IMG/VR virus record: IMGVR_UViG_2703718801_000009
Coordinates: 1-5,184 of that record
From: a virus
Lineage: Duplodnaviria > Heunggongvirae > Uroviricota > Caudoviricetes
DNA length: 5,184 nucleotides
Reading direction: 5' to 3' (one strand)
This document shows positions 3,614 through 3,902 of this stretch, in pieces (positions within the stretch are counted from its first letter, which is position 1; each line of letters opens with the position of its first letter). Both the position numbers and the translations under genes were made by a program. The notes under the pieces are model-generated. The model worked only from the letters and a program-made list of their open reading frames with translations, was not told the origin of the DNA and ran no database searches.

Positions 3614-3704
3614 CCCGAGCGGGGGGGGTATCATCCGGCGTAAAAAACGATCGCTCCGGACACCGCGCCCCCTCTCACGCAGAGAAAAAATTCCCGTTTC
3701 AGGG

Positions 3705-3722
3705 CAGTTAACATGTTAACTG
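3705..3722. repeat. Perfect 18-bp palindrome CAGTTAACATGTTAACTG
   Basis: Read directly from the sequence; it equals its own reverse complement. It is a likely dimeric protein-binding site. Confidence 0.8.
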
Positions 3723-3799
3723 GCTGTCCGGGCATTTTTGCGGTTTTTATCTTTATTATTCAGTTTGTTGTGCGGAAAAAATGTTAACTGGCTTTTTCA

Positions 3800-3832
3800 G
3801 CAAATGTTAACCAGGCAGCAGTTAACATTTGC
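3800..3832. repeat. Inverted repeat with 12-bp arms, GCAAATGTTAAC - 9 bp - GTTAACATTTGC
   Basis: Read directly from the sequence: arms at 3800-3811 and 3821-3832 are exact reverse complements, with spacer CAGGCAGCA. Confidence 0.8.
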
Positions 3833-3902
3833 GGCATGAGACGCCGGGAAAAATGGGCTGAACCATACCCGGCTGAGTGCGTTCTGGACCCGGGAGGAGG
3901 CT

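Follow-up and report, generated by a model that had tools for sequence, protein, structure and literature searches.

Positions 3621-3832 of the window, that is, of the whole 5184-bp stretch of DNA analysed here, most likely constitute the cos of an HNH-dependent phage with 3' overhangs, in which a cosB-like array of five sites is predicted to be read by the small terminase (TerS); we put the probability of this reading at about 0.72. The GTTAAC repeats that make up the array are well supported, by comparison of many related loci, as candidate TerS recognition sites, and they are most likely TerS docking sites because the repeats and the DNA-reading helix of TerS change together.

Gene order and host prophage

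The window comes from the late region of an E. coli Stx prophage of the Pankowvirus type. Pfam and PHROG scans identified the following genes:

40-609, plus strand: P22_AR_N antirepressor
832-1155, plus strand: Rz
1358-1855, plus strand: KilA-N protein
2533-2874, plus strand: TonB_C lipoprotein
3006-3266, minus strand: DUF3950, ribbon-helix-helix-like protein, divergently oriented
3248-3613, plus strand: HNH endonuclease (PF01844, E 7.5e-7; PHROG 589)
3903-4466, plus strand: terS (PF03592 Terminase_2, above the gathering score; PHROG 641)
4463-5184, plus strand: terL, N-terminal part, running past the end of the window (PF03354 TerL_ATPase, E 2.3e-12; PHROG 7622)

The PF01844 and PF03592 matches confirm the identity of the two genes, HNH and terS, that had been named in the preliminary description of this DNA as flanking the repeats. 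The HNH gene ends at the right end of the virion genome (in the Lys8385Vzw record, this end is 59 nt past the HNH gene) and, in most relatives, lies directly upstream of the conserved core described below. Because this gene order is conserved, a role of the HNH protein in packaging can be inferred here as well, and the product of 3248-3613 is the predicted accessory nuclease of HNH-dependent cos packaging.

Region 3200-4500 shows 93-98% identity to the Stx1- and Stx2-converting siphophages BP-4795, 2851, 1717, YYZ-2008, phi330 (assigned in its record to the genus Pankowvirus) and Lys8385Vzw (MT225100), and the cos/GTTAAC element itself is 95-100% identical in these six phages. The intergenic region is present in 1278 of the 5426 complete E. 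coli genomes, in up to 7 copies per genome, and its carriers are largely Stx-converting and other EHEC prophages. An Rfam search of 3000-4200, with E-values up to 1, produced no match.

The cut site and the conserved core

The elements around the predicted cut are as follows:

3621-3722, plus strand: cos core, consisting of the G tract, GGACACCGC, cosN, CTCACGC, the A-tract and the GTTAAC pair (alignment of relatives)
3621-3628, plus strand: G8 tract, a conserved core element on the side packaged last; not the cut site
3664-3673, plus strand: cosN, with the 10-nt 3' cohesive end CGCGCCCCCT (orthology to Lys8385Vzw and Bcep176)
3682-3696, plus strand: A-tract block GAGAAAAAATTCCCG, at +9 to +23 from the cut

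The cut was located by orthology. The TerS of Lys8385Vzw is 99.5% identical to the TerS encoded in the window, and the record of this phage starts with CTCACGCAGAG, corresponding to window position 3674, and ends with ...GGACACCGCCCCCCCT, so that the break falls between window positions 3673 and 3674. PhageTerm assigned Lys8385Vzw to the cos type with 3' cohesive ends and CGCCCCCCCT at the genome end (PMC7946995). The cohesive end in the window differs from this sequence by one base, and positions 3667 (G/C) and 3672 (C/G) are polymorphic among close relatives. Independent support for the cut position comes from a more distant phage of the same TerS family, Bcep176 of Burkholderia, the record of which carries the 10-nt sequence CGCACGTTCC at both ends, at the orthologous position of the core and directly before CTCACGCGCAG (also given as CTCACGCGCAGAAAATTTTCCC). 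By orthology, the nicks are therefore placed at 3673/3674 on the top strand and at 3663/3664 on the bottom strand, yielding 10-nt 3' ends, and the virion genome would begin at 3674. Virion-end data were not found in the phi330 paper or in a paper on seven Stx phages.

Thus, the location of a cos region between HNH and terS, as originally suggested, agrees with the ends of Lys8385Vzw and Bcep176, and the accompanying guess that cosN is at the G-rich tract 3617-3640 was wrong by about 40 bp: the orthologous cohesive end is separated by 36 bp from the G8 tract on its left and by 32 bp from the palindrome (3705-3722) on its right. The comparison with other cos regions, which the preliminary description had recommended, failed for HK97, the cos of which has no similarity to the DNA of the window, and succeeded for relatives and prophages, which share a core of about 100 bp.

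To delineate this core, an alignment of TerS homologues from the databases was used in a scan of one genome per species, resulting in 61 loci. The core is conserved from Enterobacterales to Pseudomonas and Burkholderiales, and Enterobacterial, Pseudomonas, Burkholderiales, Neisseriaceae and Acinetobacter loci share one layout, namely, a run of G7-G9, then 42-45 nt ending with (G)GACACCGC(G)CCCC(T), the cut, CTCACGC, the A-tract and two hexamers. When anchored on the terS start, the same layout was recovered in 36 loci of many genera. In Enterobacterales, Pseudomonas, Burkholderiales and Bcep176, the G7-G9 run precedes the inferred cut by 42-45 nt; close relatives differ in the length of this run, and in PPompW prophages, ISEc20 is inserted at the G tract. 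The A-tract is kept as AGAAAA(A/T)(A/T)TTCCC in nearly all relatives.

In most relatives, the two GTTAA(C/T) hexamers are 8-10 bp apart and straddle the start codon of terS, and the palindrome in the window is orthologous to the GT(A/T)AAC-ATG-TTAAC sequence that overlaps this start. For example, in the Salmonella phage FSL SP-016, which is 80% identical to the window over 3620-3720, the palindrome contains the start codon of terS, with AACATGTTAACAG encoding Met-Leu-Thr. The distance from the cut to the terS start is 38-41 nt in about 30 canonical loci with a locatable cos-core match; in seven Burkholderiales loci, the search did not locate a core. Apart from three exceptions, all the relatives examined use TTA as the Leu codon at the start of terS, and those in high-GC Pseudomonas, Burkholderia and Bordetella are among the users of TTA; the retention of this codon even in high-GC hosts indicates that the DNA sequence itself, and not the protein alone, is constrained. 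The ancestral state of the TerS family is the presence of only two GTTAA(C) hexamers straddling the terS start codon.

Architecture of the GTTAAC array

Between cosN and terS, the window contains these elements:

3705-3722, no strand assigned: sites 1 and 2, perfect 18-bp palindrome CAGTTAACATGTTAACTG, with hexamers 8 bp apart at +34 and +42 (repeat finder)
3723-3780, plus strand: T-rich spacer with phased A/T tracts (45% T; AA/TT periodicity of 10-11 bp)
3778-3793, plus strand: site 3, AAAATGTTAACTGGCT, direct repeat of 3710-3725 (repeat finder)
3800-3832, no strand assigned: sites 4 and 5, convergent inverted repeat GCAAATGTTAAC-N9-GTTAACATTTGC (repeat finder)
3892-3905, plus strand: terS ribosome-binding site GGGAGGAGG and GTG start, reading GTGCTGACA, without a GTTAAC motif

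All the repeats noted originally were recovered by the repeat finder with exact coordinates. GTTAAC starts at 3707, 3715, 3783, 3806 and 3821, so that a stretch of 120 bp (3707-3826) holds five copies, and the window as a whole contains 8 copies compared to the expectation of 0.91 +/- 1.0 from 200 dinucleotide-preserving shuffles of the window, none of which reached 8. The five (A)ATGTTAAC sites, all within 3705-3832, are oriented -,+,+,+,-. The 13-bp direct repeat ATGTTAACTGGCT occupies 3713-3725 and 3781-3793 and extends to 16 nt with 94% identity (3710-3725 and 3778-3793), and the 12-bp arms of the inverted repeat, GCAAATGTTAAC at 3800-3811 and GTTAACATTTGC at 3821-3832, are 100% complementary across a gap of 9 nt. 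The center of the G tract and the center of the palindrome are 44 bp and 45 bp, respectively, from the center of the staggered cut, on either side of it.

The T-rich tracts between the repeats, likewise apparent from the start, include the spacer 3723-3780. The AA/TT periodicity of this spacer is in the top 2-5% of the window, and among 110-bp segments, those starting at 3671-3686 have the second-highest 10-11-bp periodicity of the entire window. The spacer is probably intrinsically bent; no match to the IHF consensus WATCAANNNNTTR with up to one mismatch was detected in 3600-3910. Among 62 unique close relatives in IMG/VR, the whole of 3674-3960 is nearly invariant, so that, at this depth, the repeat cores and the spacers cannot be told apart by conservation.

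The window differs from most relatives in that the cut and the terS start are 229 nt apart. About 190 bp appear to have been added in this lineage, with the hexamer pair remaining beside cosN and three more sites arising. The cos-proximal copy retains a perfect GTTAACATGTTAAC, whereas the actual terS start, which is fixed by the N-terminal homology (MLTTQKRKFA) to all relatives, is GTGCTGACA. A Proteus locus (L101) is uncoupled in the same way, with a GTTAAC retained at +36 and terS starting 25 nt later with ATGCTAACA. Given that the terS start in the window lacks the motif and the pair near cosN is intact, the motif travels with cosN rather than with translation initiation.

Covariation of the repeats with the small terminase

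The TerS of the window matches Pfam Terminase_2 with 35.8 bits (cut-off 26.1) over residues 2-57. Its N-terminal DNA-binding domain is a helix-turn-helix (HTH) of the SPP1/SF6 G1P type, which is joined by a disordered linker to helices at the C-terminus. The AF2 model of residues 1-56 (pLDDT 91-96) shows the N-terminal four-helix HTH fold, which was also recognized by Foldseek, with target TM-scores of 0.84 to the SF6 TerS DNA-binding domain 4zc3 (rmsd 1.6 A) and 0.81 to 2cmp. Residues 25, 32, 35 and 38, which vary among relatives, are in or beside helices 19-25 and 33-41 of the model; thus, the modeled helices together with the SF6 superposition place the covarying residues in or beside the helix-turn-helix.

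The type of TerS DNA-binding domain goes together with the type of repeat. TerS with A25/T32/V35 (class 1) is accompanied by ATGTTAAC, TerS with E25/S32/C35 (class 2) by ATGTTTAY, and the TerS variants of satellites (KGWQL) by AGTTACAC:

Window, L152 and L153: A25/T32/V35; identical array with ATGTTAAC
L154: TerS 82% identical overall, A25/T32/V35 kept; six GTTAAC sites with altered flanks
L150, L151 and L149: E25/S32/C35; five-site layout, each site ATGTTTA(T/C), spacers diverged substantially
L146-L148, L155, L156 and L247 (PICI-like): divergent HTH with KGWQL and a phage-like C-terminal half; AAAAGTTACAC and the same cosN core

In L152 and L153, 59 of the first 60 residues, spanning the DNA-binding domain, are the same as in the window, with residues 1-44 identical. 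Class-2 phages have TATAAACATGTTTATA at the position of the palindrome, and L154 has GGTGGTTAACATGTTAACCACC there. In L150, the positional orthologue of site 3 is AAAATGTTTATACCCT, that of sites 4 and 5, in L150 and L149, is AAATGTTTAC-N9-GTAAACATTT, and the spacer keeps its length and T-richness despite substantial divergence of the sequence. In 70 unique cos-terS regions, the DNA-binding-domain type and the motif were never mismatched, with the caveat that the covariation reflects few independent events, namely, about three specificity switches, with class 2 represented by only three loci; a scan of IMG/VR with a class-2 TerS (P0024) detected no further class-2 loci.

TerL does not follow the repeats in this manner, being 97% identical between class 1 and class 2 but no more than 84% identical between two phages with the class-1 motif in common. 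The repeat type thus tracks the HTH of TerS, not TerL, which makes the predicted binding of the repeats by TerS well supported. Overall, the repeats behave as TerS sites would be expected to, being located on the terS side of the cut, conserved family-wide and covarying with the HTH, in line with what was proposed originally.

The palindromes and inverted repeats are also typical of operators, and the preliminary description allowed for an operator of a late regulator. The repeats would then bind a late-gene regulator, the DUF3950 protein, the HNH protein or a host factor, and the covariation with TerS would be hitch-hiking. The DUF3950 gene adjoins the locus in E. coli phages, and HNH is 79% identical between class 1 and class 2 and accordingly differs where the motif differs, so that the case against HNH as the reader relies on the satellites. 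In these PICI-like loci, which carry primase or AlpA genes, no HNH or DUF3950 domain was recorded for the genes called, and yet, like the relatives from other genera, they keep the repeat array beside terS. Furthermore, the annotations of FSL SP-016 and Bcep176 show no DUF3950 gene next to cos, and the distance from the motif to the cut is fixed across proteobacterial classes. A scan of 3400-4000 revealed no terminator and no sigma-70 promoter organized by the repeats, the sole promoter-like match being on the minus strand and built from the GTTAAC motif itself. Given that only terS accompanies the repeats both in phages of many genera and in satellites, the operator explanation is disfavored, and we regard it as very improbable.

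A different possibility is that the three distal sites (3778-3832) are non-functional relics of a duplication of the 5' end of terS (ATG TTA ACx, encoding Met-Leu-Thr) that occurred during the insertion of about 190 bp, so that only the cos-proximal pair matters. Each ATGTTAAC indeed resembles the ancestral terS start, most relatives package their DNA with only two hexamers, and the short ORFs opening with these ATGs lack conservation, measuring 24 aa in the window and 14 aa in L150. However, despite the divergence of the spacers, the positions and orientations of the five sites are retained in class 1, class 2 and L154, the same base changes occurred at all five in class 2, and the number of sites is even higher in L154 and the satellite locus L155. 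Concerted change of this kind is not expected of neutral relics, and we consider this scenario highly unlikely as well.

Two other interpretations of the repeats were rejected. A restriction-modification signal of the HpaI type does not fit the data because class-2 and class-3 relatives carry sequences other than a palindromic hexamer at the same positions. The small ORFs starting at ATGTTAAC, such as 3713-3787 (MLTGCPGIFAVFIFIIQFVVRKKC), are probably not genes, considering that the L150 version of this 24-aa frame is shortened to 14 aa.

The alternative to which we assign somewhat more weight, although it is still unlikely, is that the A-tract block at 3682-3696 is the TerS docking site and that the GTTAAC repeats are auxiliary or bound otherwise. 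In HK97, TerS needs only a single 15-bp site, at +15 to +29, that includes an A-tract (PMC11331095), and in the window, AGAAAAAATTCCC (+9 to +23) belongs to the blocks of the core that are best conserved across all genera, so that the A-tract, occupying a similar place, could be a binding site or even the sole one. Binding of TerS to its own 5' region could then feed back on terS expression or block transcription, and autoregulation would be natural for a hexamer pair that, in most relatives, overlaps the ribosome-binding site and start of terS. Nevertheless, the TerS of the window has no detectable similarity to its HK97 counterpart, the A-tract is constant across the classes and in satellites with a different TerS domain whereas the repeats change, and the hexamer pair in the window is about 190 bp away from the terS start and is still perfect.

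A model for cos recognition

With TerS as the reader of the repeats, we propose the following scenario. The N-terminal HTH domains of a TerS oligomer would occupy the five (A)ATGTTAAC sites that lie between the cut and terS, that is, the head-to-head pair at +34 and +42, the single site and the convergent pair at +131 to +155. The phased T-rich spacer would bend or wrap the DNA such that the proximal and distal sites meet one TerS assembly, which would set TerL and HNH on cosN, 32-41 bp leftward, for the staggered nicks that produce the 10-nt 3' overhangs. Packaging would then proceed rightwards into terS. Under this model, an SPP1/SF6-type TerS reads the array within an HK97-like HNH-terS-terL module, and the multi-site array near the cut would work like lambda cosB.

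More tentatively, with odds that we place slightly below even, the covariation can be interpreted in terms of a cosN shared by the TerS family, which spans several proteobacterial classes, whereby residues 25, 32, 35 and 38 of the TerS recognition helix would pair with one or two bases of a repeated 8-mer, ATGTTAAC, ATGTTTAY or AGTTACAC. Separate packaging or cross-packaging of EHEC prophages residing in one cell would depend on the class, and PICI-like satellites would hijack TerL and HNH of the helper via their own TerS, with its phage-like C-terminal half, and a private array on the common cosN.

The sequence specificity of small terminases is unsettled, and neither the wrapping nor the threading model explains the specificity of TerS in vivo (PMC7672466). 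The present locus offers sharply defined sites together with a precisely placed cut, and its natural specificity variants, which differ by about three amino acids and by one or two bases per site, make swap experiments simple. The matched TerS/site pairs, if real, would be a natural set for exploring how small terminases read DNA. A shared cos/TerS class should also decide which defective prophages and satellites are packaged by which helper; in O157 Sakai, the prophages Sp4 and Sp14 have nearly identical cos, and cross-packaging has been proposed (PMC2669165). In the literature searched, the GTTAAC array, the conserved core and the specificity classes are not described, and only the 10-nt cohesive end of Lys8385Vzw has been published. 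What the present analysis adds are the matched TerS/site classes, including the satellites that apparently swap TerS on a shared cosN.

Comparison with known packaging systems

HK97 shares with the window the gene order HNH-cos-terS-terL, 10-nt 3' overhangs (here assigned by orthology), an A-tract just downstream of the cut and a distantly related TerL of the PF03354 type (26% identity over 105 aa between the window TerL and HK97 gp2 in BLASTP, E 6e-6). In vitro, the HNH protein of HK97 stimulates cos cleavage (PMC11331095). In contrast, BLASTP detected no similarity between the window TerS and HK97 gp1 (E 1.2), which has no Terminase_2 match, and the single 15-bp TerS site of HK97 differs from the multi-site array that extends here from +34 to +155. 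Of the HK97 background invoked in the preliminary description, the gene order therefore holds, whereas the binding of TerS to repeated sites does not, HK97 using one site (PMC11331095). We rejected HK97 as a direct homologue of the cos/TerS system in the window, neither the TerS protein nor the cos DNA being similar.

The TerS proteins of SPP1 and SF6 belong to the same family as the window TerS (Terminase_2) and have a common N-terminal HTH fold. SPP1 and SF6 package by the headful (pac) mechanism, and SPP1 has neither defined cohesive ends nor an HNH partner; its pac, with the repeated boxes pacL and pacR, is reportedly recognized via several short repeats on intrinsically bent DNA (Chai and Alonso, cited in PMC7672466). 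The type phages thus differ from the near-identical relative of the window, Lys8385Vzw, which has a cos with defined ends. SPP1 G1P binds weakly and with little sequence specificity in vitro (PMC7672466). The locus described here, by contrast, has sharply defined 8-mers beside a precise cos cut.

The cos of lambda is organized as cosQ-cosN-cosB, with the R3-I1-R2-R1 sites of cosB bound by the HTH of gpNu1, a winged-helix protein unrelated to Terminase_2; the overhangs are 5' and 12 nt long, there is an IHF site, and no HNH partner is involved. The window differs from this arrangement in having 10-nt 3' overhangs, a motif of unrelated sequence, and phased A/T tracts without an IHF consensus in place of the IHF site. 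The similarities are in the overall design: in both cases, several copies of one motif lie in mixed orientation on the terS side of the cut and upstream of terS, with bendable DNA between them, and a conserved element is present across the cut, where the G8 tract may stand in place of lambda cosQ. A lambda-type arrangement implies at least three motif copies on the terS side in mixed orientation, and the window has five. By analogy, then, lambda cosB is the closest functional counterpart of the predicted TerS-binding array.

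Geometry of the cos region

The G8 tract (3621-3628) and the GTTAAC palindrome (3705-3722) lie on opposite sides of the 10-bp staggered cut (3664-3673), with their centers located, respectively, 44 bp and 45 bp from the center of the cut. The spacing between the G tract and the cut is maintained at 42-45 nt across genera. Left of cos, there are two divergent genes:

3006-3266, minus strand, DUF3950 (YlcI/YnfO-like) gene
3248-3613, plus strand, HNH gene

The two genes overlap by 19 nt at the start of the HNH gene. Among E. coli relatives, those checked (L152 and L153, two loci with the same GTTAAC array as the window, and RefSeq annotations) have this pair immediately to the left of cos.

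In PPompW prophages (LC567818, LC567822 and others), similarity to the window starts at ~3625, inside the G8 tract, and ISEc20, an IS110-family element, is annotated directly to the left of this point. In these prophages, ISEc20 parts HNH from cos and breaks the conserved G tract, an insertion that may have disabled packaging.

Cohesive ends

Two positions within the cohesive-end sequence are polymorphic among the 62 unique close-relative sequences, namely, 3667 (G vs C, 34 vs 27) and 3672 (C vs G, 45 vs 17). When different prophages share one cell, imperfect annealing is expected between some of their ends. Position 1 of an independent assembly contig, L071 (IMGVR_UViG_2681813226_000009), is the equivalent of window position 3673, one base off the genome start of the close relative phage Lys8385Vzw. 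In a phage-producing culture, coverage may have broken off at cos, which would account for this contig start.

Short open reading frames at the repeats

Three short ORFs each start at a ATGTTAAC and share the N-terminus Met-Leu-Thr:

3713-3787, short ORF
3781-3810, short ORF
3804-3839, short ORF

For each of the first two, the stop codon is the TAA within the following GTTAAC. The ORF at 3713-3787 would encode a hydrophobic 24-aa peptide, MLTGCPGIFAVFIFIIQFVVRKKC; its counterpart is of equal length in L154, a relative with six GTTAAC sites. This ORF is probably not a gene because it is shortened to only 14 aa in L150, a relative of the ATGTTTAY class.

Other genes of the window

40-609, anti-repressor-type protein, P22_AR_N domain
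1358-1855, anti-repressor-type protein, KilA-N domain
2533-2874, lipoprotein-like ORF, 113 aa, TonB C-terminal domain

The two anti-repressor-type proteins have the C-terminal ORF11CD3 domain in common, and their genes bracket the Rz/Rz1 lysis genes. The lipoprotein-like ORF, the counterpart of which is annotated "protein TonB" in Lys8385Vzw, lies after the lysis/KilA-N genes and ahead of the packaging module. It has non-coding DNA of its own on both flanks and resembles a moron.

PICI-like islands with their own TerS

PICI-like islands of E. coli encode a TerS paralogue:

L146-L148, terS 1501-1989
L155, terS 1501-1974
L156, terS 1227-1700
L240-L249, further islands

The paralogue gene adjoins a primase (D5_N, DUF5906 or AAA_25) or AlpA gene and, in L146, is followed downstream by a gene for a 307-aa capsid-family protein. 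The C-terminal half of the paralogue is similar to the phage TerS, and the HTH is divergent, with the pattern ..RFADA..NPTEAA..KGWQL. The cosN core and the G tract of the phage are present on these islands, and the repeats differ, being the islands' own AAAAGTTACAC. The islands look like TerS-swap satellites of an HNH-dependent cos helper.
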